24,941 bases of DNA from a virus: the UHGV virus genome UHGV-0019275; one strand, 5' to 3'. Both the position numbers and the translations under genes were made by a program. Below the pieces are notes generated by a model, which worked only from the letters and a program-made list of their open reading frames with translations, was not told where the DNA came from and searched no databases. Shown one piece after another: positions 1-24,910 of the stretch. Position 1 is the first letter of the stretch; each line of letters starts with the position of its first letter.

Positions 1-15
1 GTTGGTTTGGGAGAA
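1..15. repeat. Left crossover site of invertible segment (partial, cut by window edge)
   Basis: Positions 4-15 GGTTTGGGAGAA are identical to the right half-site of the 1855-1880 site read on the opposite strand; central TT at 2-3. Confidence 0.5.
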
Positions 16-510
16 GGCTCTGCATTACCGGTTGGGGTGCCTGTTCCGTGGCCTTCAGCCACTCCGCCAACAGGCTGGCTGAAATGCAATGGTGCGGCTT
101 TTTCTGCTGAAGAATACCCGGAACTGGCAAAGGCTTACCCGACCAATAAATTGCCTGATTTACGCGGTGAATTTATTCGTGGCTGGGATGACGGTCGCGG
201 GATTGATTCTGGTCGTACTTTGCTTAATTGGCAGCCACACACAATTTTGGACCATGCACACTATATGGAATTATGGACAGGGGACGGACTCGCCGCAGGA
301 AGTGCACGGGAAGGAGTAAATCCAGGAATACTGGCTACATACGGTGACGGGGGAATAGTTAAAACAGACGAACCTGGTCTTAAGGTGCCTTCCTCACTAC
401 GAGCTATTAGCTCCCGTAGTGTAAAACGTTTTGGTGAAATTAGTGGAAAGGTAGGTACAGAAACTCGTCCTCGTAACATCGCTTTTAATTATATTGTGAG
501 GGCCGCATGA
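1..510 (+). CDS. Alternative tail-fiber C-terminal variable segment (promoterless, silent in this orientation; would fuse to H after inversion)
   Basis: Frame 1 is open from position 1 (VGLGEGSALPVGVPVPW...); contains a phage tail-collar-like motif (LPDLRGEFIRGWDDGRGIDSGR); stop at 508-510 overlaps the next ATG. Confidence 0.7.
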   Translation, partial: VGLGEGSALPVGVPVPWPSATPPTGWLKCNGAAFSAEEYPELAKAYPTNKLPDLRGEFIRGWDDGRGIDSGRTLLNWQPHTILDHAHYMELWTGDGLAAGSAREGVNPGILATYGDGGIVKTDEPGLKVPSSLRAISSRSVKRFGEISGKVGTETRPRNIAFNYIVRAA

Positions 511-1112
511 TGAATAAAGCTGTATTAAATAGCGAACTCATTGCCATAAAAGTGGGAGATATTACCGTTTATAATTATGATGGTGAAACGCGGGAATATA
601 TTTCTACATCAACTGAATATCTCGCTGTCGGCGTCGGTATCCCGGCATGTTCCTGTCTGGATGCACCAGGTACACATAAAGCTGGTTATGCAATCTGTCG
701 CTCTGTAGATTTAAATTCATGGGAATATGTGCCAGACCATCGCGGTGAAGTTGTCTATAGTACCGAAACGGGAGATACCAAAGAAATCACAGTTCCGGGT
801 GATTACCCTGAAAATACAACCACTATCGCCCCGTTAACGCCATACGATAAATGGGATGGTGAGAAATGGGTGACGGATACCGAGGCACAGCATAGCGCCG
901 TAGTAGATGCAGCAGAAGCACAGCGCCAGTCGCTGATTGATACAGCAATGGCTTCTATCAGTCTGATTCAACTGAAATTACAGGCCGGACGGAATCTGAC
1001 GCAGGCAGAAACCGCCCGACTTAACGCTGCGCTGGATTACATTGACGCGGTGACGGCAACAGATACCAGCACCGCACCGGATGTCATCTGGCCTGAACTG
1101 CCGGAGGCGTAG
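507..1112 (+). CDS. Tail fiber assembly protein (alternative copy)
   Basis: 201 aa; C-terminus (LNAALDYIDAVTATDTSTAPDVIWPELP) is typical of the Tfa/gpG family and parallels the minus-strand copy; ATGA overlap with the upstream fiber segment. Confidence 0.8.
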   Translation: MMNKAVLNSELIAIKVGDITVYNYDGETREYISTSTEYLAVGVGIPACSCLDAPGTHKAGYAICRSVDLNSWEYVPDHRGEVVYSTETGDTKEITVPGDYPENTTTIAPLTPYDKWDGEKWVTDTEAQHSAVVDAAEAQRQSLIDTAMASISLIQLKLQAGRNLTQAETARLNAALDYIDAVTATDTSTAPDVIWPELPEA

Positions 1113-1503
1113 GCCATTCAATATCTGGAGCACTGGAGGGATCAACCAGTTCCAGTGCGTCCAGATAATCCAGCCATAAATTATATTGTGCCAGTTCCTC
1201 ACCTTTCAGGCGACCAATCGCCGCTTTACCTGGCCATTGTCTGCTGTTCATGTGCTCGTTGGCTTCATTAATAAGTTTTCTTTTTTTCAAATCCGCCAAT
1301 GCAATAAGGTTTTCTTTTGATAAAGGTGGTTGCTCTGTCAAAACCGGATATCCCTCCTGATTGCTGACTATTTTCATGCCATTATCCTGACCATCCAGTA
1401 GTAACAGCCATTCATCCGTGGTTATCTCAACAGCATCTGAAGGTGCTTTATTTAAATCGGTAAAAAAACCATTTTCTTTTTGTGAATAGAAGTATCTATC
1501 CAT
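1084..1503 (-). CDS. G: Tail fiber assembly protein (copy expressed with current H)
   Basis: 139 aa; C-terminal motif NLWLDYLDALELVDPSSAPDIEWP; immediately downstream of H; converges on and overlaps the + strand copy by 29 bp. Confidence 0.8.
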   Translation of the reverse strand: MDRYFYSQKENGFFTDLNKAPSDAVEITTDEWLLLLDGQDNGMKIVSNQEGYPVLTEQPPLSKENLIALADLKKRKLINEANEHMNSRQWPGKAAIGRLKGEELAQYNLWLDYLDALELVDPSSAPDIEWPTPPAVQAR

Positions 1504-8805: not shown

Positions 8806-9873
8806 TTAGGCTCCGCTTTCCGGTGCTGCAGGTGCGGTGAAATCGCCCAGGGTGATGTTTTCCAGCAGGCACCCGGCGGCATACGCCTCGACCACATAGT
8901 CGATATTCATCGACTCGTAGTTTTCAACGCGGTCTTTTTTCGGGTTTTCATCAATGCTGCGGCGGTGGCTCTCATCCATGAAATAGATAGAGAGGTTTTC
9001 CAGCGTGGTCACTAACACGGCATTCGCCGGGAAGTACGGCACACGCACAGCAGGCAGGTTGCCGATTCGCTTCTGGCTGATGATGATATCTGCCGCAAGC
9101 GCCTCGCTGTTTTCCTGCGGCTTGTTCACCAGCGGGAAATATTTGTCGGCTAGCAGCTTACGGCCAACGATGGCAACGAGTTTCGGGTCATCCTGATAAA
9201 CCTCGTCAATCAGGTTGTTGGTGGCGTCCATCACCAGCGCGTCGAGGTTCTCATAGTCGCCGTTTCGACCTACACGAATCACTGCTGAAACGACCTTACC
9301 GTCAGCGTCGGTGATGTTGCTCATCACGCGCGTCGGGGCTTCATTGCGGTATTTCTGCAGCCAGCCGACGGCCACATCCTGCAGCATCGGATTTTTGGTG
9401 CGGTCAGAGGTGGCGGCGCGGGTGGTACCGTTAAAACCGGCCATGATGAAATCCAGTGCCTGACGTTTGACAATGGCGTCGCGGATGCGGCGCTGGAAGT
9501 CCTGAAAACGCGCCCACAGGTCGAGGGTTTTATATTTCAGATGGAAGTCAAAATTAATTTGGTCGCACTCGTACTTGTTGGACTCAAGCGCGGTGAAGTC
9601 GGCGGTCTTACGCTCATCATCGCCCGAGGTGTCGGTCGTGCTGGCGATAGTACCGGTCACACCGACGCCGATTTTCTCACCCTTCATTTCTGCGACCGGC
9701 AGAATATTAATCGTCTGCAGAAACGCGGATGACTCCTGCACTTTGTTCATCAGTGTTTGCGTGACGGACGGCTCGACGGTGAATTTTTTACTGACGTCAT
9801 CAGTGCTGATGCCGTTCAGCTCAGCGACGCGGGTCAGATAGGCATTGAACTTAAAACGGGTATCCGGGCGCAT
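8806..9873 (-). CDS. N: Major capsid protein N
   Basis: 355 aa; MRPDTRFKFNAYLTRVAELNGI...ECDQINFDF...NLPAVRVPYFPA, high similarity to P2 gpN from memory. Confidence 0.95.
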   Translation of the reverse strand: MRPDTRFKFNAYLTRVAELNGISTDDVSKKFTVEPSVTQTLMNKVQESSAFLQTINILPVAEMKGEKIGVGVTGTIASTTDTSGDDERKTADFTALESNKYECDQINFDFHLKYKTLDLWARFQDFQRRIRDAIVKRQALDFIMAGFNGTTRAATSDRTKNPMLQDVAVGWLQKYRNEAPTRVMSNITDADGKVVSAVIRVGRNGDYENLDALVMDATNNLIDEVYQDDPKLVAIVGRKLLADKYFPLVNKPQENSEALAADIIISQKRIGNLPAVRVPYFPANAVLVTTLENLSIYFMDESHRRSIDENPKKDRVENYESMNIDYVVEAYAAGCLLENITLGDFTAPAAPESGA

Positions 9874-13817: not shown

Positions 13818-14543
13818 TCAATCGTGAGTGGATATTTGCGAAACAAACTCTTTAACTCCATCTCGTTCAAGTATTTTACTGTCATGGATATACTTTACGA
13901 TATCCCACTCGTAGTATGTACAAGCCATTGCAACTAAAGATATTATTTTTATGTCAGTTAAGTTAACTAATGTTTCATAATAATCTTCCCGTTCAACCCC
14001 GCAATTATCTATCAACTTCACAATCAAATAAAAGCGACGCACCACTGAAAAAATGCAATCATTAGCATCCACTTCACTTAACCACTTTGTTATTACCTCT
14101 TTTTTTACCTTGGCTTTAACTAAAATTACAATATTATCTTCAAGATAAGTTACGGCTGCACCACTTGTAAATTCTTCGACCACCCCGTCAGTTTGTCCAT
14201 CAATATCACCAACTTGAACACAAAACCTTTCAAAGTTAGAATCCTGACATTCAACCAAATGGAAAAATCTCACTTCAAATTTTTTATACTCTTCTAAAGA
14301 TTCTTGCCTTTTTACTTCATCGATCAGGCTGGAATTAGCCTCCCTTTGAAGTTTTATTGAATTTATAAGGAGGTAAATTGTAATAAATGAAAGTATAGGG
14401 TTGACGACACCACCCAAATAATCACCAAACTGCGCCCAAACATCAGTCTTGCTGGATAAATGTCCGTTTACTCCGAAGTTGAAGTAATACAAGGCGCACA
14501 CAGCTACAATCACGCCAGCCGAAGACAGCAACACCTTTCTCAT
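13818..14543 (-). CDS. Cargo protein B: 241-aa protein with two predicted N-terminal TM helices, function unknown (candidate membrane effector)
   Basis: ATG at 14543 overlaps the stop of the upstream gene (ATGA); hydrophobic segments VIVAVCALYYFNF and VVNPILSFITIYLLINSI; AT-rich codon usage unlike the phage backbone; no family recognised. Confidence 0.7.
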   Translation of the reverse strand: MRKVLLSSAGVIVAVCALYYFNFGVNGHLSSKTDVWAQFGDYLGGVVNPILSFITIYLLINSIKLQREANSSLIDEVKRQESLEEYKKFEVRFFHLVECQDSNFERFCVQVGDIDGQTDGVVEEFTSGAAVTYLEDNIVILVKAKVKKEVITKWLSEVDANDCIFSVVRRFYLIVKLIDNCGVEREDYYETLVNLTDIKIISLVAMACTYYEWDIVKYIHDSKILERDGVKEFVSQISTHD

Positions 14544-15358
14544 ACAGTTTCAACCATACGGATTAGATATTTCACCACATCACCACTTTTTACTACAACT
14601 TTGCTAACAGTAAGTTTTAGATATGTGTAGTTATCTTGCCTGCCATTATTATTGTGTAAATTTAATGAGACCAATCTTTTTTGAGCGGCGGGTATAGCCT
14701 TTAAAGGCATGTAAAAACCAAAGGCTACTGTATCATCTTCACCTTCGATAACTAACCTACCATTTCCAGTTCTCGCATTAAATCGAGTAATAACTGCGTT
14801 AATATTAACTTGACCGGGCTTTATTTTTGATTGTGTCAAGTTTGTAGCAGTCATTGTGTCTAACTTTGCTATTCTTTGTTTTCCAGCAGGTTTTTTATAG
14901 TTAAGTTCAACATCAAAGTTTTTTTGAAGATTTATCCTATGCATCCTTACCAAAGGTTGTCTGATACGATCAATAAGTTCATCTTCAATTTCCTCAAGCT
15001 CCTCAATAATTCCTGCAGCTTTTGGAGATAGCTCCTTAGTTTCCAGATATAGAGATTCAGAAATAAAATACCCCATGACTTCCGAGAACACAGAACGGGT
15101 CATTTTTTTTAATTCGGCAGCTAATTCCGGCTCATTAACAATCAAGTCGAAGTTTTGACCATAAGAACTTTTAAAGCTTTGTTTGAGAACCGCTCGCGCA
15201 GGGTTAACATGAGTGCGGCGCTTAATAATTTTTTTTCTGAGTATTGCCTCTGCTAGTATGCATGTCACCTCAGCCGTTCCAGAGAGGGTATCAAGGCCAT
15301 ACTCCATATCAACTTCTTGATCACCACTTTTGATGACAACGTCATAGCTAACTTTCAT
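14540..15358 (-). CDS. Cargo protein A: 272-aa soluble protein, function unknown
   Basis: ORF track starts at GTG 15364, but ATG 15358 has a good SD (AAGGA, 7-nt spacing); no nucleotide-binding or nuclease motif recognised by eye; AT-rich. Confidence 0.7.
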   Translation of the reverse strand: MKVSYDVVIKSGDQEVDMEYGLDTLSGTAEVTCILAEAILRKKIIKRRTHVNPARAVLKQSFKSSYGQNFDLIVNEPELAAELKKMTRSVFSEVMGYFISESLYLETKELSPKAAGIIEELEEIEDELIDRIRQPLVRMHRINLQKNFDVELNYKKPAGKQRIAKLDTMTATNLTQSKIKPGQVNINAVITRFNARTGNGRLVIEGEDDTVAFGFYMPLKAIPAAQKRLVSLNLHNNNGRQDNYTYLKLTVSKVVVKSGDVVKYLIRMVETV

Positions 15359-15466
15359 CGGCACATCCTTGATTTAGTAACCTTTGGTTATTATTTTTCA
15401 TCTTCTACTCATTGACACCGATTTTTTACACCAAAAATATCAAATTGCAAGTGTGTGCTGCGCGCA

Positions 15467-15809: not shown

Positions 15810-16001
15810 TTATTTGTGCATTCTAATGTGGTTTAACAGGTGTTTGATAACGACCGTAAGCTCATCTTTACTGGCTTGCTCGACCATTTTTTCGGTGTAG
15901 CTTTCCACCTCACGAGAACTCAGGTCGTTATTTGAAGCCATTACGGTCAGCTTTTTTGCCCAATCGGCAAACGGGTCTATCGATGAAAGGGAATTATGCA
16001 T
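15810..16001 (-). CDS. Hypothetical small protein (start uncertain; overlaps the start of the divergent 143-aa ORF)
   Basis: ORF with ATG at 16001 preceded by a GAGG SD; tightly divergent from the + ORF so only one may be real. Confidence 0.2.
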   Translation of the reverse strand: MHNSLSSIDPFADWAKKLTVMASNNDLSSREVESYTEKMVEQASKDELTVVIKHLLNHIRMHK

Positions 16002-16431
16002 GTCCAAAAACCTCGAATTATTTAACCAGCAGACGGCGGAAATTTTTGCGGTGTTATGGGATAACTTCCCGGTGCCGCAGGTCATCACCTACGAAAAATT
16101 TAACGCCGTGCTACCTGATGACTACTTTGACCAACTTAACTCACCGGAAATGAAAGCACTGAATCAGTTGCGTAGTGTGGTTGAGGGTACATTCACTTTT
16201 CTCAGTGAAAACGGCTACATCCAATATGAAACAGACCATCAGACTTATTTTCGGGATGTGCGCCTGACCGAGAAAGCACTCGCCGTGCTCAACAAAAAGC
16301 CCGAGGCACTCGGCGGTAGTGAAACGATGGGCGATAAGATTATCAGTGCGGTGAAAGACGGGGCACCCGGAGTTATTGCAGGTGCGGTGACAAACCTGCT
16401 TTCACTCGGTGTCAATCTGGTAACCAACTAA
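16000..16431 (+). CDS. Hypothetical 143-aa protein with hydrophobic Gly/Ala-rich C-terminal tail
   Basis: ATG at 16000 with AGGGA SD about 9 nt upstream; plausible composition; C-terminus GAPGVIAGAVTNLLSLGVNLV; no family recognised. Confidence 0.4.
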   Translation: MSKNLELFNQQTAEIFAVLWDNFPVPQVITYEKFNAVLPDDYFDQLNSPEMKALNQLRSVVEGTFTFLSENGYIQYETDHQTYFRDVRLTEKALAVLNKKPEALGGSETMGDKIISAVKDGAPGVIAGAVTNLLSLGVNLVTN

Positions 16432-16498
16432 CGCCTCGCGTGGCTCGTTGTTCAACCCCGTCAGCACTGAAAGCAAGTTTCAGCACCGGCGGCGTTTG

Positions 16499-16732
16499 TT
16501 AATGCAGCCAGCTATCGTCCTCCCATACCTGCTGCATGATTTCCATTACTCGTTTTTTATCTTCGTCCAGTTTCAAACCGCTTAGTTCAACGCCATTAGC
16601 GGAGCCCTTGCGAATTCGGATAGCAGTCTTTGGGTAAATAGGTTGAAGATTGCGGTACAGTTCAGCCTCAAGTGCATCCAATGTTGCCTGACTAATTTTT
16701 TGCTCTTTATCCAACGTGATATTGATTCTCAT
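16499..16732 (-). CDS. DinI-like protein (SOS-regulated; corresponds to the DinI-like part of the 186 Tum antirepressor)
   Basis: 77 aa, MRINITLDKEQKISQATLDALEAELYRNL...MEIMQQVWEDDSWLH, resembles the E. coli DinI family (MRIEVTIAK...ALAGEL.RR...EILQETWE..DDWF) from memory. Confidence 0.75.
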   Translation of the reverse strand: MRINITLDKEQKISQATLDALEAELYRNLQPIYPKTAIRIRKGSANGVELSGLKLDEDKKRVMEIMQQVWEDDSWLH

Positions 16733-16735
16733 AAT

Positions 16736-16918
16736 CTAATCAGCCTTATAAAAATTATCATCTTCGGTTTCGTTATTTTCGCTGTTTGCTAGGTCTGCAA
16801 TGAGAGTGAGCGCGAGCTTTAAGTCTGATGGCTTGCAGTTTGCAATCAGAGATACCTCGGCAATAAATTGCACACAAGCCCACTTTTGCTGCGTTCGGCT
16901 GAAATGTTCGCCAACCAT
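16736..16918 (-). CDS. Tum-like antirepressor N-terminal ORF, first gene of the LexA-controlled operon
   Basis: ATG 16918 with strong SD (GGGAGGG); LexA box 20 bp upstream; ends at TAG 16736-16738, in frame with the DinI-like ORF. Confidence 0.6.
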   Translation of the reverse strand: MVGEHFSRTQQKWACVQFIAEVSLIANCKPSDLKLALTLIADLANSENNETEDDNFYKAD

Positions 16919-16937
16919 GAAATCCCTCCCATAGGGT

Positions 16938-16957
16938 TACTGTATGTTTATACAGTA
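16938..16957. promoter_or_regulatory. LexA (SOS) box overlapping the promoter of the tum/dinI-like operon
   Basis: TACTGTATGTTTATACAGTA, a perfect CTGT-N8-ACAG palindrome with AT-rich spacer, between the A stop (17032) and the ORF start (16918). Confidence 0.75.
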
Positions 16958-17031
16958 GCACGTATTGGCAAAAGATGGGAAGAAAAAAAACGAATAGAGC
17001 GATTGCTGTATGTGCATGATATGGATATGAA

Positions 17032-19254
17032 TTACTCATGTATTGGTTTTGATTCTTCAGCCATCGCCGCAACACGATTAAGGATTTTCCGAGCTTTAGC
17101 CTCATGCGATGGTGCTGCGGAAAATATTTCTCCTTTGGCCGTTCCGCGTAGCCATTTACCATCAAAACAACTTTTACCACCGGCCATCAGGTGCAGGGCT
17201 TCGCCCCGGCTGATATTAATGCCGGTTGTCAGATGTATCTCATCGATAGTTTTAGCTATAGCTGCGTTTTGCTCATCCGTTCCGTGGATGAATTTTCGCC
17301 GTGCTGCTGGCTTTTGCTTCCTGAGTCGGTTGGTCAATTCTCGTCTTTCACGCCGACTCAGTGGTTTTGTTAAATCCAGTATCGGTGGATCGCTTTCGCT
17401 TCCCGTACAGTTATTGACAGAACTCCGAGGGACGGCTTTGCCGTCCTGAAGGTCAACGGCCAAATCAACAGCACGCTTCGGAACAATCTTCCACTGAGTG
17501 AGCCGGGTTAAAATCGGGCTTCCTGCACCTATGGAGGAATCGTAGACCCCCTTAATACATACCGTTTCCTCACCGTACTGATTAAGCTCGGTACGCGGTT
17601 CATACAGTGTGCGCACCTGTAAATCATCGCGACGGACAAACGGCCCACCCTGAGCATTAACATAACCAGCCCAGTCACCAGCGTCGGCGGCATCATGGAC
17701 GGCGGCAAACTCAACGCTCAGACCGTGCGCGGTTTCGGTATCAGCGAGGCGACGCAACTCACGGTAAACCGTCACCGGCGCACCACCAATAAACTGAAAC
17801 TGACGGATGTGCCAGCGCGCAGCCCATGCTGAAACGGCGGGGGCTGTCTCTTTCAGCAGCTCACCGCTTTCATCATCGGTTTCACCATCGAGAGCATAAC
17901 CGTCGATATTTTTTGAAATGTATTTAGCAACATAGCCGGTTGCGCTGCCTTTCTCCGGGTCAATGGACTCCGCGTGGAAACGTGCTTTTTGGGATTTATC
18001 GCTTTTCAGTTCGTGGCGGTCTTCTTTCCATGCGTATTTACGGACGATGGAGCGAACATATTCAACATCTTCCGGCAGCATGAACATCAGCATGTGCCAG
18101 TGTGGAGTGCCGTCGTGATGGGGCTCGGCGACACGAATACCGAAAATACGGACATCTTCCCGATGTAGTTTGGCACGGATACGCGCCCAGATACCGGTTA
18201 GATAGTTTTGCGTGTCAGCCGGGCTGGCACCGCTCCATTTGCTGTTACGGTAACCGGCTTTAGTCGTGGCGTGATATTTTGACGGCGCGGTTAGAGTGTA
18301 AAACTCACCGACATAACCGAGCTCATTACAGATGTTTTCAAACCCACGAATGCGGGTCATGAGCTCACAGCGGCGAATCGCAGGGTTAGCAACTGAGCCA
18401 TCATATTTTTCAATTAGGCTGATACGGTTGCCGTCTTCGTCTTCGAGATCCAGACCTTTGAGAAATTCACGAGTGCGGCGCTTTTGTTCACGCCAGTCAG
18501 TCACGCAGTTTTTACTCGCGTAAGTGTTTTTTTTCTTACTGACGTTGCCGACTGCAATTTGCAGGTGTTCGCGCCACGTAGCTGCTACACGGCGCAAACG
18601 ACCGCGCCACCACCCATCGTTAAACATTTTGGCGATAGCCGGTGCGATTTCATCCGCACCGACATATTTTTTTTCAACCCGCTCCCAATGTGGTGGGATA
18701 ACGTTGAATTGGAGGGAAATAAAGCCAGCACGAATATACCAGGTGTACAGCGTTTTAAGCTCGCCGAATCCGTGGTCATTAATGTTGGCAAGTTCACCAC
18801 GAATGAAATTAGCAATATCAGCGGCCAACAGGTCAACATCAGCGCGCGACATGTCCGGGAGACGGTTATATCGGGCGACCATATTAACCATGCGTGACGA
18901 CAGATATTGCATTTGCTGAGTATCAAAATGACTTCCAAAAACAGCGGTTGATACCTTGCTGTTGATACCAGCGCATTCGTATTTTTTTGCGACCAGTTCA
19001 AGACGCGGCAATGCCTTTTTGCAGAAGCTGATTAAAAATGCATTGGCTCGTTGACTACCCTGATTTTGTTCCAGCACCGCAGCAGTGCGATAAACATCTA
19101 ACCGCACGCAGTCGGGCTGGAGAGAAAGCACCTTTTTTGCATGCAGCAAAGCCGCGAACATACGGTCGCGGCGATGCTGTTGCTCATAAGTAAGGTATGG
19201 GCTGGAGATTGCCGACCGTGGGACGTTCCACGGATAAGCGAATTGAACAGCCAA
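17032..19254 (-). CDS. A: Replication initiation endonuclease A (rolling-circle initiator)
   Basis: 740 aa; conserved blocks (YTLTAPSKYH; VAEPHHDGTPHWHMLMF; GYVAKYISKNIDGYALDG) match P2 gpA from memory; initiator codon at 19254 is TTG, 1 nt after the upstream stop (coupled). Confidence 0.95.
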   Translation of the reverse strand: MAVQFAYPWNVPRSAISSPYLTYEQQHRRDRMFAALLHAKKVLSLQPDCVRLDVYRTAAVLEQNQGSQRANAFLISFCKKALPRLELVAKKYECAGINSKVSTAVFGSHFDTQQMQYLSSRMVNMVARYNRLPDMSRADVDLLAADIANFIRGELANINDHGFGELKTLYTWYIRAGFISLQFNVIPPHWERVEKKYVGADEIAPAIAKMFNDGWWRGRLRRVAATWREHLQIAVGNVSKKKNTYASKNCVTDWREQKRRTREFLKGLDLEDEDGNRISLIEKYDGSVANPAIRRCELMTRIRGFENICNELGYVGEFYTLTAPSKYHATTKAGYRNSKWSGASPADTQNYLTGIWARIRAKLHREDVRIFGIRVAEPHHDGTPHWHMLMFMLPEDVEYVRSIVRKYAWKEDRHELKSDKSQKARFHAESIDPEKGSATGYVAKYISKNIDGYALDGETDDESGELLKETAPAVSAWAARWHIRQFQFIGGAPVTVYRELRRLADTETAHGLSVEFAAVHDAADAGDWAGYVNAQGGPFVRRDDLQVRTLYEPRTELNQYGEETVCIKGVYDSSIGAGSPILTRLTQWKIVPKRAVDLAVDLQDGKAVPRSSVNNCTGSESDPPILDLTKPLSRRERRELTNRLRKQKPAARRKFIHGTDEQNAAIAKTIDEIHLTTGINISRGEALHLMAGGKSCFDGKWLRGTAKGEIFSAAPSHEAKARKILNRVAAMAEESKPIHE

Positions 19255-19255
19255 T

Positions 19256-19477
19256 TTATACCCCCCGATAGTGTTTGTTTTTTAGCTCTGCGATTTGCTG
19301 GCAGGTTACGCAAAAAGCCACGCCCGGAATCGCAATGCGGCGAGCTTCCGGGATTGGTGCGTCACATTCCTCGCAAAGAAAACAGGAAGGTGCAGCGATA
19401 CGGGTGCGTGCGTTGCTGATGTGGCGTTCGCGGTCTTCCTGCTCGCGCAGTTGTGCTAAATCCATTGCGTCGGCCAT
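19256..19477 (-). CDS. TraR/DksA-family C4 zinc-finger protein
   Basis: 73 aa with CFLCEEC...CVTC four-Cys motif; same position as the P2 orf82-type gene upstream of A. Confidence 0.8.
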   Translation of the reverse strand: MADAMDLAQLREQEDRERHISNARTRIAAPSCFLCEECDAPIPEARRIAIPGVAFCVTCQQIAELKNKHYRGV

Positions 19478-19704
19478 TAGTGCAGCTCCTGTGATTCATT
19501 CTCAAAGCGGGTTGCTTCACGGCGCAGCAGTTCGGCAGCTTCGGTGCCGCTCATTCCCTCTCTGGTAATATGGATAGCCAGCGCCTCAAGGCGGATGGAA
19601 ACAGCGAGCGCGCGGTCTTTACGCTCTTCTTTTTTTGCATCGGTCAGCAATACGGCCAGCGCATCGCTATCAGTGTTAAAACTACGGATTTCGGTATTAC
19701 GCAT
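19477..19704 (-). CDS. Hypothetical early protein
   Basis: 75 aa; ATG 19704 with AGGAGA SD; stop overlaps the next start. Confidence 0.5.
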   Translation of the reverse strand: MRNTEIRSFNTDSDALAVLLTDAKKEERKDRALAVSIRLEALAIHITREGMSGTEAAELLRREATRFENESQELH

Positions 19705-20281: not shown

Positions 20282-20791
20282 TCAAATCAGACCAAACGAT
20301 GCGCCAATACCGCTCATGGTATCGACCACGCTCGACATAGCTGGATTAGTCTGCAGACGTGCATGCAGAGCCAGAGCCGACAATGACAACATGCGAATGC
20401 CGGAGTTAACGCTTTCAATCATGTTATGCTTACGGGCAATGGTCAGACGTTCATCAGATACCGCGCCGCTCGCCAGTTCGCCGAGTTCACGCATTGCGCG
20501 CATGACATAAGACTGCAATTTGTCTTTAGCCAACTCATTAACCGGCACGCATGGTAGGCAGTGAATCTGCGCTAAAAAACCATCAATGAGGGTTGAGTCT
20601 TCGGTCAGGTCAGTCAGCAGCCACAATTCAGACGGCGTGAACTGGTGAGGCTGTTCCGGGTTGAGCTTGTTACGTAACGTTTGAACGTTCATACCTGCAC
20701 GCTTGGCCAGCTTCGCCATATTGTGACGCTGTGCGAAAATGCGGCATGCTTCGTCATAGTGGGGATGTTTGGAAACCTGAAAATCAAACAT
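20282..20791 (-). CDS. cII: Phage CII-like regulatory protein (186 CII / CP76 family)
   Basis: Start set at ATG 20791 (MFDFQVSKHPHYDEACRIFAQRHNMAKLAKRAGMNVQTLRNKLNPEQPH...) with GAGGGA SD, giving 169 aa; second gene of the early lytic operon; matches my memory of 186 CII. Confidence 0.7.
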   Translation of the reverse strand: MFDFQVSKHPHYDEACRIFAQRHNMAKLAKRAGMNVQTLRNKLNPEQPHQFTPSELWLLTDLTEDSTLIDGFLAQIHCLPCVPVNELAKDKLQSYVMRAMRELGELASGAVSDERLTIARKHNMIESVNSGIRMLSLSALALHARLQTNPAMSSVVDTMSGIGASFGLI

Positions 20792-21316: not shown

Positions 21317-22177
21317 ATGAGTTCTGAGCTTGATGTTCAGTGGCGTGTTAGTGCAACGAACGGCGTATTGGAACGCTTAATGTCAGCCTATGGGGTCAAG
21401 ATGCAAAAGGATTTGGCTGACCTGCTAGGTATCGCTAAACACAGCGTTAGCGGCTGGGTTCAGCGTGATGCAATACCTGGCAATGTCATAGTTAGGTGTT
21501 GTCTTGACACGGGAGCTGATATCAATTGGCTTGTAAATGGAGAACTTGCAAATGCAAATCACGAGCGAGCCAGTTGCAAGTTAAAAGGCAAAGAGCTTTA
21601 TGACGAGATTATGACGAATGGTGGTAAAACCGTTTTGCGTAGGATTCTTGATGCGTATGGCTTTACCATGCAAAAGGAGCTCGGTGATTTGCTCGGCATT
21701 TCCTCTGGCACAATTAGCACATGGGTAAGGCGAGATTTTTTCCCTGGTGATGTTGTTGTTACATGCGCTCTTGATACCGATACGTCACTGGAATGGTTAG
21801 CAACAGGCAAGGGGCAAATGCGAGCTAACAGGGAAGATGTCACATCTGGTTTTTCTATTAAAAAATCTCGTCTTGAATCTGGTGAGCTTAAGGATGCAGG
21901 AACGTGGCATCCTGACCCCTCAATGATTCCTTCTAACTCAGGGGAATTGATTTTTGTTGACGGTGTAGCTGCCTCTTGGCTTGTCGACTGTTCTGCTTCG
22001 AATATAAGTAATGGTCGCTGGTTAATTGATATCGACGGCGCTCTTGATGTTTTTGATGTAATTCGCTTGCCCGGTGGAAAAGTCAGGTTGTCAAATAAGT
22101 CTGCTGAGTTTGAATGCAACATTACAGACATTACTCCTGCCGGGGCTGTAGTTTTCACATTGGAAAAACACGTGTAA
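21317..22177 (+). CDS. cI: Immunity repressor, 186 CI-like, with tandemly duplicated N-terminal HTH domain
   Basis: 286 aa; residues about 16-75 and 105-165 are internal repeats (AYG..MQK.L.DLLGI.....S.WV.RD..PG.V.V.C.LDT.....WL..G), each resembling the 186 CI DNA-binding domain; upstream of int on the same strand. Confidence 0.8.
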   Translation: MSSELDVQWRVSATNGVLERLMSAYGVKMQKDLADLLGIAKHSVSGWVQRDAIPGNVIVRCCLDTGADINWLVNGELANANHERASCKLKGKELYDEIMTNGGKTVLRRILDAYGFTMQKELGDLLGISSGTISTWVRRDFFPGDVVVTCALDTDTSLEWLATGKGQMRANREDVTSGFSIKKSRLESGELKDAGTWHPDPSMIPSNSGELIFVDGVAASWLVDCSASNISNGRWLIDIDGALDVFDVIRLPGGKVRLSNKSAEFECNITDITPAGAVVFTLEKHV

Positions 22178-22185
22178 GGGACATT

Positions 22186-22514
22186 ATGAAATGTAAACTC
22201 TTTTTAGCTCTGCTTCTTACCCTTTCTTTTGGAGCCTCAGCCGCTGAAAAAACACAGGATTTAGATGGCGCTAAGTTTGGTGAGGATTGGCCGTTAACTT
22301 TTGAAAAAGCTACGGTGTCTTGTGTCAACGGTAAATATGCCTTTGTGTACGACAAAGCAACAGATGACCAAATGGTTTTGCGATTGATGGAGTAAAGTCT
22401 GGAAAGCTTGAGGGGAGCAATATTGATACTGTTTGGAAAGATAGCCCGGAGTATGCAGGCGTAAAAATTCCTTTGGATCCTGTAATGGATGCTGCAACAG
22501 CACTTTGGGAATAA
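22186..22514 (+). pseudogene. Small secreted protein gene (DUF2511/YebY-like?) interrupted by a frameshift
   Basis: ATG 22186 with AAGGG SD and signal-peptide-like N-terminus MKCKLFLALLLTLSFGASA; frame 1 stops at 22393-22395, but frame 3 continues as PNGFAIDGVKSGKLEGSNIDTVWKDSPEYAGVKIPLDPVMDAATALWE to 22514; a 1-nt indel near 22366-22370 would join them. Confidence 0.5.
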
Positions 22515-22536: not shown

Positions 22537-23577
22537 ATGACTGTAAGTAAGCAAAAAAATGGCAAATGGTTATGCGAGCTCTATCCAAATGGTCGAGAAG
22601 GGCGGCGTATACGTCGGCAATTCAATACCAAAGGTGAGGCCGAGGCATTCGAAGCATTTACGAAAAGTGAGAGTGAGGATAAGCCGTGGCTCGGCAAGAA
22701 AGAAGACCGCCGACGCTTAAGTGAGATTATCCAGCTTTGGCATAATTTACACGGACAGGCACTGGTCGCCAGTAAGTCGCGGTTAGCTAAACTTCAAATC
22801 GTGTGTAATGGACTTGGTGACCCTATTGCATCCCGCCTTACTGCTAAAGATTGGGCTCATTACCGTGACCGCCGACTTCGGGGGGAGATAGATAATGGCT
22901 ATCATAAAGACCCGGCAAAATGGATTGCTAAACCGATAACTGTCAATCGTGAGCAACAATATCTTGAGGCTGTATTTAATGAGCTCAAAAGGCTAGGGGA
23001 GTGGAGCTTACCAAATCCACTTGATGGAGTCCGTGTTTTCAAGGAAGCCGAGAAAGAAATGTCTTGGCTCACTTTGTCTCAAATTCCGAAATTGTTTCAG
23101 GCATGCGAGCAATACGGAAAAGAAGACCTCACCATGATTGTTAAGATTTGTCTTGCAACAGGTGCTAGATGGGGTGAGGCTGAGAGGTTGACACGTCCCC
23201 AGCTCTCGCCACATAAACTGACCTTCACCAAAACGAAAGGGAAAAAGAATCGAACCGTTCCGATCCCAAAATGGTTGTATGACGAATTATCTGAAAGGCA
23301 GGGAAAGATGTTTAAGCCTTGCTATCAGGAGTTTAAAAAGATGCTCAAACTAACGGATATCGAACTGACGGAAGGGCAAAAGACACACGTTCTGCGTCAT
23401 ACCTTCGGCGCTCATTTTATGATGAATGGCGGGAATATTCTTGTGCTGCAACGTATACTCGGTCATGCGAATATTCGTGAAACTATGAAGTATGCACATT
23501 TCTCCCCGGATCATCTTGAGGAGGCTGTAACATTTAATCCTTTAACATTATGTAATGGTTTTAAATGGAAAGATTAA
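22537..23577 (+). CDS. int: Tyrosine integrase (P2 Int family)
   Basis: 346 aa; C-terminal catalytic motifs HVLRHTFGAHF and GHANIRETMKYAHF; downstream of the repressor as in P2/186. Confidence 0.9.
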   Translation: MTVSKQKNGKWLCELYPNGREGRRIRRQFNTKGEAEAFEAFTKSESEDKPWLGKKEDRRRLSEIIQLWHNLHGQALVASKSRLAKLQIVCNGLGDPIASRLTAKDWAHYRDRRLRGEIDNGYHKDPAKWIAKPITVNREQQYLEAVFNELKRLGEWSLPNPLDGVRVFKEAEKEMSWLTLSQIPKLFQACEQYGKEDLTMIVKICLATGARWGEAERLTRPQLSPHKLTFTKTKGKKNRTVPIPKWLYDELSERQGKMFKPCYQEFKKMLKLTDIELTEGQKTHVLRHTFGAHFMMNGGNILVLQRILGHANIRETMKYAHFSPDHLEEAVTFNPLTLCNGFKWKD

Positions 23578-23645
23578 TTATGCGTATATTGTTAGTTTAT
23601 TTTAACGCTGTTGGATTTAAATTTAATAACGGCTGCGTCTATTGT

Positions 23646-23692
23646 AAACCATAAAGACCACCTATGGCCGTCTTTATGGTTTGTGTTTTTTT
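23646..23692 (+). terminator. Rho-independent terminator downstream of int
   Basis: 13-bp inverted repeat AAACCATAAAGAC / GTCTTTATGGTTT with 11-nt loop, followed by a 7-T run (23686-23692). Confidence 0.55.
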
Positions 23693-23693
23693 G

Positions 23694-24464
23694 TTATGAT
23701 GGTAATTCTATTTCATCATGATCATCAACTTTTTCAAAGTCACCGGCTTTAATTGGGACAGGTTTAAGTTCAATTTCACCGAAACCCATTGGGAAAAGAC
23801 TATGAGTAGTGTCTTGTTTGCAAAAATAAGATACCAAATCAAATCCACAGGAAACTTTTTTTATAAAGTCATCTGATAGTAAAATGCATAAAAAAGATGA
23901 GTCTTCTTTTGTTTCTGTGTTTTTCTTTGTTGTCTTGGGGTGAATTATGTCATTTCTAAGTGACTCAAGGCTTTTAAAATCTTGCCATAGTTTTGAACCT
24001 TTAGGTGAATCACAATTTAAAATAGACGGTAGGATTTTATCTATTTTTTCACTTGTTGGTATATATCGCTCAATTAGCTCTTTGCTATAGGATTCTTTGA
24101 TTCCCTTGGCATTGTTTTTTTCATAAACATAATCATGTGGTATGCATATATTTGCAAAAGACTCAATTGCAGTATACATAGAAATAATGGCCGTCTGAAT
24201 TGATTCAAAGTAATTATAGAGTCTCGGCAGGTCTTTGTCGGAAATTTTAAAGTTTTTATGTTTGGTTTTGTGTATTTTTCCAAAAAGACTTTTATATATA
24301 GAATTGGATTTTGAGAGCTCTTTTTTTGCTGAGGATAAGAATATAGAAACGTTATTTGGGGTGAAAAAACTAACTGTCGCACCAGATAATGTGGCTTTAT
24401 CTGACATTTGCAATGTCAAATTTAAATTTTCTTCTTCTATTCTTGCTATGATTGGTCTCTGCAT
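23694..24464 (-). CDS. Hypothetical protein in AT-rich flank beyond int (start uncertain; ORF-track start 24539 is TTG)
   Basis: Long AT-rich ORF; first ATG at 24464 lacks a good SD; contains RNDIIH (an Rx4H, HEPN-like motif); no family recognised. Confidence 0.4.
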   Translation of the reverse strand: MQRPIIARIEEENLNLTLQMSDKATLSGATVSFFTPNNVSIFLSSAKKELSKSNSIYKSLFGKIHKTKHKNFKISDKDLPRLYNYFESIQTAIISMYTAIESFANICIPHDYVYEKNNAKGIKESYSKELIERYIPTSEKIDKILPSILNCDSPKGSKLWQDFKSLESLRNDIIHPKTTKKNTETKEDSSFLCILLSDDFIKKVSCGFDLVSYFCKQDTTHSLFPMGFGEIELKPVPIKAGDFEKVDDHDEIELPS

Positions 24465-24910
24465 CCTGATATCGATAATCTGGATTGTATCCTTTTTTGA
24501 CACGTTCTTCTCCGTGGATGTTTTGTGGTTAAAAAACAATGCTAATTTTAGGATGTTGGGTTTTTAAAAACTGACAACTACTTGGTAATACCTGATTCGT
24601 GCAAAAATAATTTTGAAGCTAATAATTACATTATATCAGGTAAAAATCATATAATGCGTATCAATATTACAACATATACGGAAATTTTCCAACTACCTCA
24701 TGTGTTAGCGTTTCACTCGGGTATACTAAAGTCTGTGTGGTATAAAGCTTTAAGTGGCGGCAAAGTGGCGGCGGAGGTTGCAGAATATTGCAATTCACTG
24801 CATTAAAAATTAAATTAACTAATTGTTTTTATTATAATTATATGTTTTTTATGTGGTTTTATTGGGAGCGTCTTAACTAAGATTTCGCTTAAGCGACATC
24901 CTGTTAAGAA

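Follow-up and report, generated by a model that had tools for sequence, protein, structure and literature searches.

Between the repressor and integrase genes of the window analyzed here (24,941 nucleotides of UHGV virus genome UHGV-0019275), a protein-like reading begins in one frame, stops, and continues in another frame (22186-22514). Is this interval a chance pair of ORFs, an intact gene that only appears broken because of a sequencing error, a gene whose two pieces are joined in translation, or a gene that has been lost? And, if a gene was lost, was it recently acquired cargo or a resident of this family of prophages? The window is 100% identical to positions 3658824-3683764 of the Escherichia coli CH425 chromosome (NZ_CM166358.1), which carries a ~32 kb prophage inserted between yfiB and rplS. 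The prophage, compared with P2 in an earlier note made from the letters alone, is PSP3-like, that is, it belongs to the P2 family and has a 186-type CI/Apl/CII switch. As that note stated, the interval is flanked by the genes for a repressor and an integrase: upstream is cI (21317-22177, + strand; stop codon 22175-22177), the first gene of the lysogenic operon, which encodes an immunity repressor of the 186/PSP3 type (two copies of PF07022, 1.3e-52; PF16452, 1e-20; identical to WP_001394632.1), and downstream in the same operon is int (22537-23577, + strand), which encodes an intact tyrosine integrase (PF24624 and PF00589; identical to WP_001394630.1).

The 5' fragment (22186-22395, + strand; DUF2511) has 69 codons, from the ATG at 22186, which is also the start chosen by PGAP, to a premature TAA at 22393-22395. 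A Shine-Dalgarno-like AAGGGA read from the sequence (22176-22181, + strand) is located 4 nt 5' of the ATG and overlaps the cI stop codon; the encoded N-terminus, MKCKLFLALLLTLSFGASA|AEKTQ..., has by inspection alone the features of a signal peptide (approximately codons 1-19/20), that is, MKCK with K2 and K4, an 11-residue hydrophobic core (L5-F15; Kyte-Doolittle mean of 2.2), and A17-S18-A19. The ribosome-binding site and signal-peptide-like N-terminus on which the suspicion of a secreted protein was based are, then, both present. Residue 3 of the signal peptide (22192-22194) is Cys (TGT) in this lineage and Arg, His, or Gly in other alleles; it varies among alleles, and a Cys here is probably neutral. 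The mature sequence, in which Cys46 is encoded by 22321-22323, continues through D61 and is followed by eight out-of-frame residues (QMVLRLME).

The 3' fragment (22368-22514, + strand) is in the -1 frame relative to the 5' fragment, overlaps it by 28 nt (22368-22395), and reads PNGFAIDGVKSGKLEGSNIDTVWKDSPEYAGVKIPLDPVMDAATALWE, that is, 48 codons (PNGFAIDG...ATALWE) that end with the TAA at 22512-22514; the stop at 22393-22395 and the continuation in a second frame to 22514 are therefore as originally described. The 3' fragment lacks both a start codon and a signal peptide, and no ORF of at least 25 aa is listed in the -1 frame; it is presumably untranslated. Instead of the one uninterrupted 112-codon frame of a functional gene, the locus has a stop after 69 codons, and PGAP annotates exactly 22186-22514 in CH425 as 'DUF2511 domain-containing protein; frameshifted'.

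The two halves had been said to loosely resemble the DUF2511/YebY-type family, and profile searches now establish this relationship. The joined protein matches Pfam family PF10709 (DUF2511) with 45.9 bits (E=7.5e-12) over profile positions 5-86 of 87; using the gathering score of 21 bits as the cut-off, the C-terminal fragment alone is above it (27.3 bits; profile positions 42-86) and the N-terminal fragment alone is below it (15.9 bits; profile positions 5-38). Because the two fragments match complementary parts of PF10709, we regard them as the parts of one split gene and not as a chance pair of ORFs. The repaired protein has further homologues: phmmer aligns it with the YebY structure (7N0J) over 77 residues (E=3.4e-6), with W35, C46, and YPLN aligned, it matches phrog_2950 over its full length (1.3e-51; PHROG annotation 'unknown function'), and intact copies are found in related prophages (vide infra). 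No match to the repaired protein was found in NCBIfam or PADLOC. The DUF2511 fold is a four-stranded antiparallel beta-sheet with four helices; a single-sequence AlphaFold2 model of the intact PSP3 protein had a pLDDT of 59, and with this poor model Foldseek retrieved no PDB entry with E<0.9.

The structure of E. coli YebY has been solved (7N0J), and the protein has been shown to be periplasmic (Hadley et al., 2021; PMC8689200). Members of the DUF2511 family have two strictly conserved cysteines that are disulfide-linked (Cys48-Cys113 in YebY), and substitution of either cysteine in YebY with Ala or Ser abolishes expression (PMC8689200). In a 2025 follow-up, YebY is proposed to act as a damper on the import of copper by YebZ (PMC11923076). 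The phage protein shares with YebY the PF10709 domain, a signal peptide, the conserved Trp, the positions of both cysteines, and the YPLN motif, and is similar in size (112 aa for the ancestral phage protein; ~11 kDa for mature YebY); however, the relationship is distant, as the length and E-value of the phmmer alignment indicate, and the window copy, unlike YebY, is a pseudogene. The contexts also differ: yebY belongs to the yobA-yebZ-yebY (AZY) copper-import operon, whereas the phage gene is located in a prophage lysogeny operon, where its neighbors are cI and int and not copD- or copC-like genes. A second relative with the DUF2511 fold and a disulfide in the same place is MlbQ (PDB 2MVO), the self-resistance lipoprotein for the Microbispora lantibiotic NAI-107 (PMC8689200); this likeness suggests an extracytoplasmic role in ligand binding or protection. 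MlbQ differs in that it is a lipoprotein of a Gram-positive bacterium, has a long linker, and is encoded with ABC transporters, and no direct sequence match between MlbQ and the phage protein was obtained here.

In PSP3, SEN1, vB_EcoM-613R3, Midge, and other phages, megablast identified a 339-bp gene that lies, unbroken, between cI and int. We compared 31 related loci (from phage records, IMG/VR contigs, one Enterobacter genome, and E. coli chromosomes): the order cI-DUF2511-int is conserved in all 31, of which 29 are intact and two (Ecol_545 and 10035210-2) carry the same deletion as the window. Each of the 29 intact genes (PSP3 gp28 and 28 others) has 112 codons in one frame; Cys111 and RYPLNG are present in 26/26 intact copies outside the CH425 lineage. 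For 20 distinct intact coding sequences the median pairwise dN/dS is 0.09 (0.075 for the mature part), a value that indicates that the intact gene is functional in this clade and under purifying selection. In PSP3 the gene is orf28, encoding gp28 (NP_958085.1; phrog_2950), in the same slot between cI and int as the window copy, and the cI-gp28-int DNA of the window is 88-92% identical to those of PSP3 and 613R3.

Is gp28, then, newly acquired cargo, as the earlier note proposed? The distribution of the gene is patchy and restricted to the PSP3-type clade: tblastn of 50,697 phage records located it in only seven distinct phages and did not find it in P2 or 186 (P2 lacks this gene, in line with the statement that it has nothing between C and int), and a scan of species-representative genomes located one locus only, in Enterobacter sp. 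MGH 24. Patchy presence is a feature of a moron, that is, of a self-contained cassette; however, our searches of the + strand from cI to int detected nothing that resembles a promoter or a terminator, so the gene appears to be embedded in the operon and in a lysogen is presumably co-transcribed with cI and int. Because the same cI-gp28-int slot, the length of 112 aa, and a dN/dS of ~0.09 are found throughout the PSP3-type clade, gp28 is, judged by comparative sequence analysis, a resident accessory gene of the clade, and the proposal of recent acquisition is not sustained.

Comparison with the intact orthologues also identifies what happened to the window copy. The earlier note had placed a 1-nt indel around 22366-22370, the repair of which would restore a protein of about 109 aa. 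The position was right (the junction is 22369|22370, + strand), but the DNA alignments reveal a different lesion: 10 bp (GATACCCATT) that are present in all intact orthologues are missing, and the protein that the deletion interrupted had 112 aa. The deletion removes the codons for R62, Y63, and P64 and part of that for L65, so the conserved R-Y-P-L motif is lost (YPLN is identical even in E. coli YebY, elsewhere a distant match) and the frame is shifted by -1. In the aligned sequences a single placement of the gap fits, without microhomology, and neither a repeat search nor inspection of the alignment revealed repeats or microhomology that would explain the deletion. Relative to PSP3 gp28, then, the window copy is 10 bp short, frameshifted, and prematurely terminated; the signal peptide, W35, C46, and the sequence of the C-terminal helix are shared by the window copy, PSP3 gp28, and the E. 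coli prophage allele WP_001394631.1.

The alignment also reveals a second defect that the earlier note had missed. Codon 111 (22506-22508, + strand), the penultimate codon, is TGG (Trp) in the window; in all other lineages it is TGC or TGT (Cys; e.g., in PSP3, 613R3, and Midge). Only one member of the conserved cysteine pair, Cys46, is therefore retained, and the Trp that replaces the other is encoded in the presumably untranslated frame. The undeleted sister allele WP_001394631.1 (112 aa; e.g., in E. coli S3) is 100% identical to the window except for the 10 bp. Because this sister allele already has W111, the Cys111→Trp substitution is older than the deletion.

Could the lesion be an artefact of sequencing or assembly, with an unbroken gene in the cell itself? 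The CH425 sequence comes from a chromosome-level WGS assembly, and the earlier note, which left open whether the gene was inactivated or mis-sequenced, had suspected a homopolymer error at 22360-22375. However, the 10-bp deletion is located in non-repetitive sequence, so it is not a homopolymer slip. In addition, the deletion is found at 100% identity over a 501-bp query in 7/5426 complete E. coli genomes (12/5426 have this sequence without the loss of the 10 bp); the seven genomes, from Pakistan, Viet Nam, China, Australia, and the USA, share a base-for-base identical lesion, and the exact 69-aa truncated product is encoded on 363 public contigs. PGAP annotates a frameshifted DUF2511 pseudogene at the equivalent loci of Ecol_545, 10035210-2, ECE313, and GMM060 as well. 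We therefore retain 'inactivated' and discard 'mis-sequenced'; the probability that the lesion is artefactual is, in our estimation, negligible.

Alternatively, the two pieces might be functional and joined by a programmed -1 ribosomal frameshift; the second frame is indeed offset by -1 from the first, and the two overlap by 28 nt (22368-22395). This explanation we consider extremely improbable: the intact copies (29/29) have a single frame, the overlap (GAC CAA ATG GTT TTG CGA TTG ATG GAG TAA) contains no X XXY YYZ heptamer, no RNA structure family was found there (or elsewhere in the window, in which no Rfam family was detected), and the joined product would still be without the RYPL motif and Cys111.

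The distribution of the deleted allele allows its origin to be traced. At window position 20704, in cII, all five deletion carriers tested have T, as does the intact locus of S3; the other seven intact loci among the 13 compared have C. This shared cII SNP haplotype implies a single deletion event on that haplotype; recurrent independent deletion was considered and rejected, since every carrier tested shares the haplotype with S3. CH425 and ECE313 differ at 3/8730 positions across the prophage's early region and at 33/1883 positions in the host flank, and the late region of the Ecol_545 prophage is only 91-94% identical; the occurrence of the deletion allele in several host and prophage backgrounds implies that the phage, or this region of it, moved after the deletion had occurred. 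A search of IMG/VR for the exact deletion junction returned no match. In the Ecol_545 prophage, ISEc12 (IS21 family) splits the major capsid gene (positions 16044-19697 of locus L007, corresponding to approximately 9274-9283 of the window); the window copy of this gene is uninterrupted. Some deletion carriers are thus defective prophages, and others appear to be intact.

The explanation that we prefer, with a probability of roughly 0.93, is that 22186-22514 is a decayed orthologue of PSP3 orf28/gp28 that was hit twice, by C111W and then by the 10-bp deletion. The ancestral gene would have encoded a 112-aa Sec-exported periplasmic DUF2511/YebY protein from its place between cI and int of PSP3-like prophages. 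In CH425 and its relatives, the first hit, Cys111→Trp, removed the disulfide partner of Cys46; the second, the single deletion at 22369|22370, excised RYPL, shifted the frame, and brought the stop at 22393-22395 into use. The remaining product would be at most a 69-aa precursor (~49 aa after cleavage of the signal peptide) that lacks half of the domain and has an unpaired Cys46 and eight aberrant C-terminal residues; such a product would most likely be degraded. By analogy with the cysteine mutants of YebY, C111W had probably disabled the phage protein already, in which case the 10-bp deletion would represent secondary decay. W111 may, alternatively, be tolerated: the full-length W111 allele is common, occurring on at least 1000 public contigs, and the C111 allele likewise on at least 1000.

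Does the premature stop influence expression of the downstream int gene? From the stop to the int ATG there are 141 nt, which are C-poor (22 C vs 40 G) and so a poor site for Rho loading, and int has a ribosome-binding site of its own (GGTGA); for both reasons a polar effect on int would be unlikely.

The remaining question is whether inactivation of gp28 was advantageous, either by sparing the lysogen the cost of a periplasmic protein or by tuning int expression through earlier termination; this proposal would add to the pseudogene explanation and not replace it. Two successive lesions have accumulated in this single gene of 339 bp, and the 32-kb prophage around it is intact but for one other pseudogene, that of an invertase; the deleted allele is found in different host backgrounds, and the W111 lineage contains what would be a third, independent frameshift allele. 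The latter is represented by a public 72-aa protein (P0003; three Logan contigs) that reads ...DDRYPLNGLRLME and in which the 10 bp are kept; its C-terminus (...RYPLNGLRLME) is consistent with the loss of 1 nt in a TTTT run (at window positions 22376-22379), and it may be either an independent inactivation or itself a homopolymer sequencing error. However, purifying selection on the intact orthologues is strong, neutrality alone predicts additional lesions in a gene whose product C111W has already put out of action, a deletion of single origin can spread by hitch-hiking with a successful prophage, and the C-poor gap before int argues against an effect via termination. On balance, we judge selected loss to be improbable, and none of the observations calls for it.

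We would assign a similarly low likelihood to the more specific proposal that gp28 is a periplasmic lysogenic-conversion factor whose stepwise loss in a prophage lineage of worldwide spread (C111W, the 10-bp deletion, and possibly an independent 1-nt frameshift) reflects selection against its activity in human-associated E. coli and not neutral decay. If this proposal were true, gp28 could, by analogy with YebY, damp YebZ-dependent copper import or, by analogy with MlbQ, have as its ligand a peptide antibiotic or a component of an incoming phage.

The locus is, then, a genuine but ordinary pseudogene, derived from an accessory gene that is known and conserved in PSP3-type prophages, and it is already annotated as such publicly. 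The CI-YebY-recombinase context is also already known: Hadley et al. (2021) described YebY homologues in Enterobacteriaceae whose genes are flanked by those for a XerD-like recombinase and a PF07022 CI repressor (PMC8689200). What our analysis contributes is the corrected nature of the lesion and the evidence that it is real, so the pseudogene calls by annotation pipelines are right, and the conservation of a YebY-like gp28 across PSP3-type prophages. The natural C111W and 10-bp-deletion alleles, in near-identical prophages, provide ready isogenic material for studies of the role of gp28 in the lysogen.

Several other features of the prophage were observed. A 13-bp direct repeat, GAGCGTCTTAACT (window + strand), is present at both ends of the prophage and may be the att core; its right-hand copy occupies 24866-24878 of the window, and the other copy adjoins rplS (positions 33977-33989 of locus L041). 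A segment of ~1.2 kb (23545-24754) between int and the att region is absent from PSP3 and 613R3, and homology to the int-ogr intergenic region of PSP3 restarts at ~24755. The segment contains an AT-rich 281-aa ORF (23694-24539, - strand; annotated by PGAP as 269 aa, WP_001394629.1) that matches phrog_17113 (1e-180; 'unknown function') and has no Pfam or NCBIfam match; PADLOC gives a weak match (1.3e-4) to the HEPN-like RTasHEPN model of DRT systems, so this ORF may be a defence gene. The true extra cargo relative to PSP3 is this ORF and not the DUF2511 gene.

A second variable region is located between the portal and replication genes; it contains - strand ORFs of 241 and 274 aa (13818-15364) and a + strand ORF of 143 aa (16000-16431), for which Pfam and PADLOC searches returned no match. 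Compared with the Ecol_545 prophage this region is essentially unmatched, one 75-bp match aside; in the matching prophages of other strains, the annotated genes include those for protein kinases or an nSTAND1 NTPase. The three ORFs could be uncharacterised cargo in a variable prophage slot.

Elsewhere in the CH425 prophage, the annotation shows only one other gene that is not intact, the remnant of a tail-fibre invertase. This remnant, an invertase-like 'recombinase family protein' pseudogene (NZ_CM166358.1, 3683830-3684029), lies outside the window, just to the left of position 1, and adjoins opposed tail-fibre and tail-fibre-assembly genes (window positions 1-1500); the region looks like a frozen host-range inversion switch.
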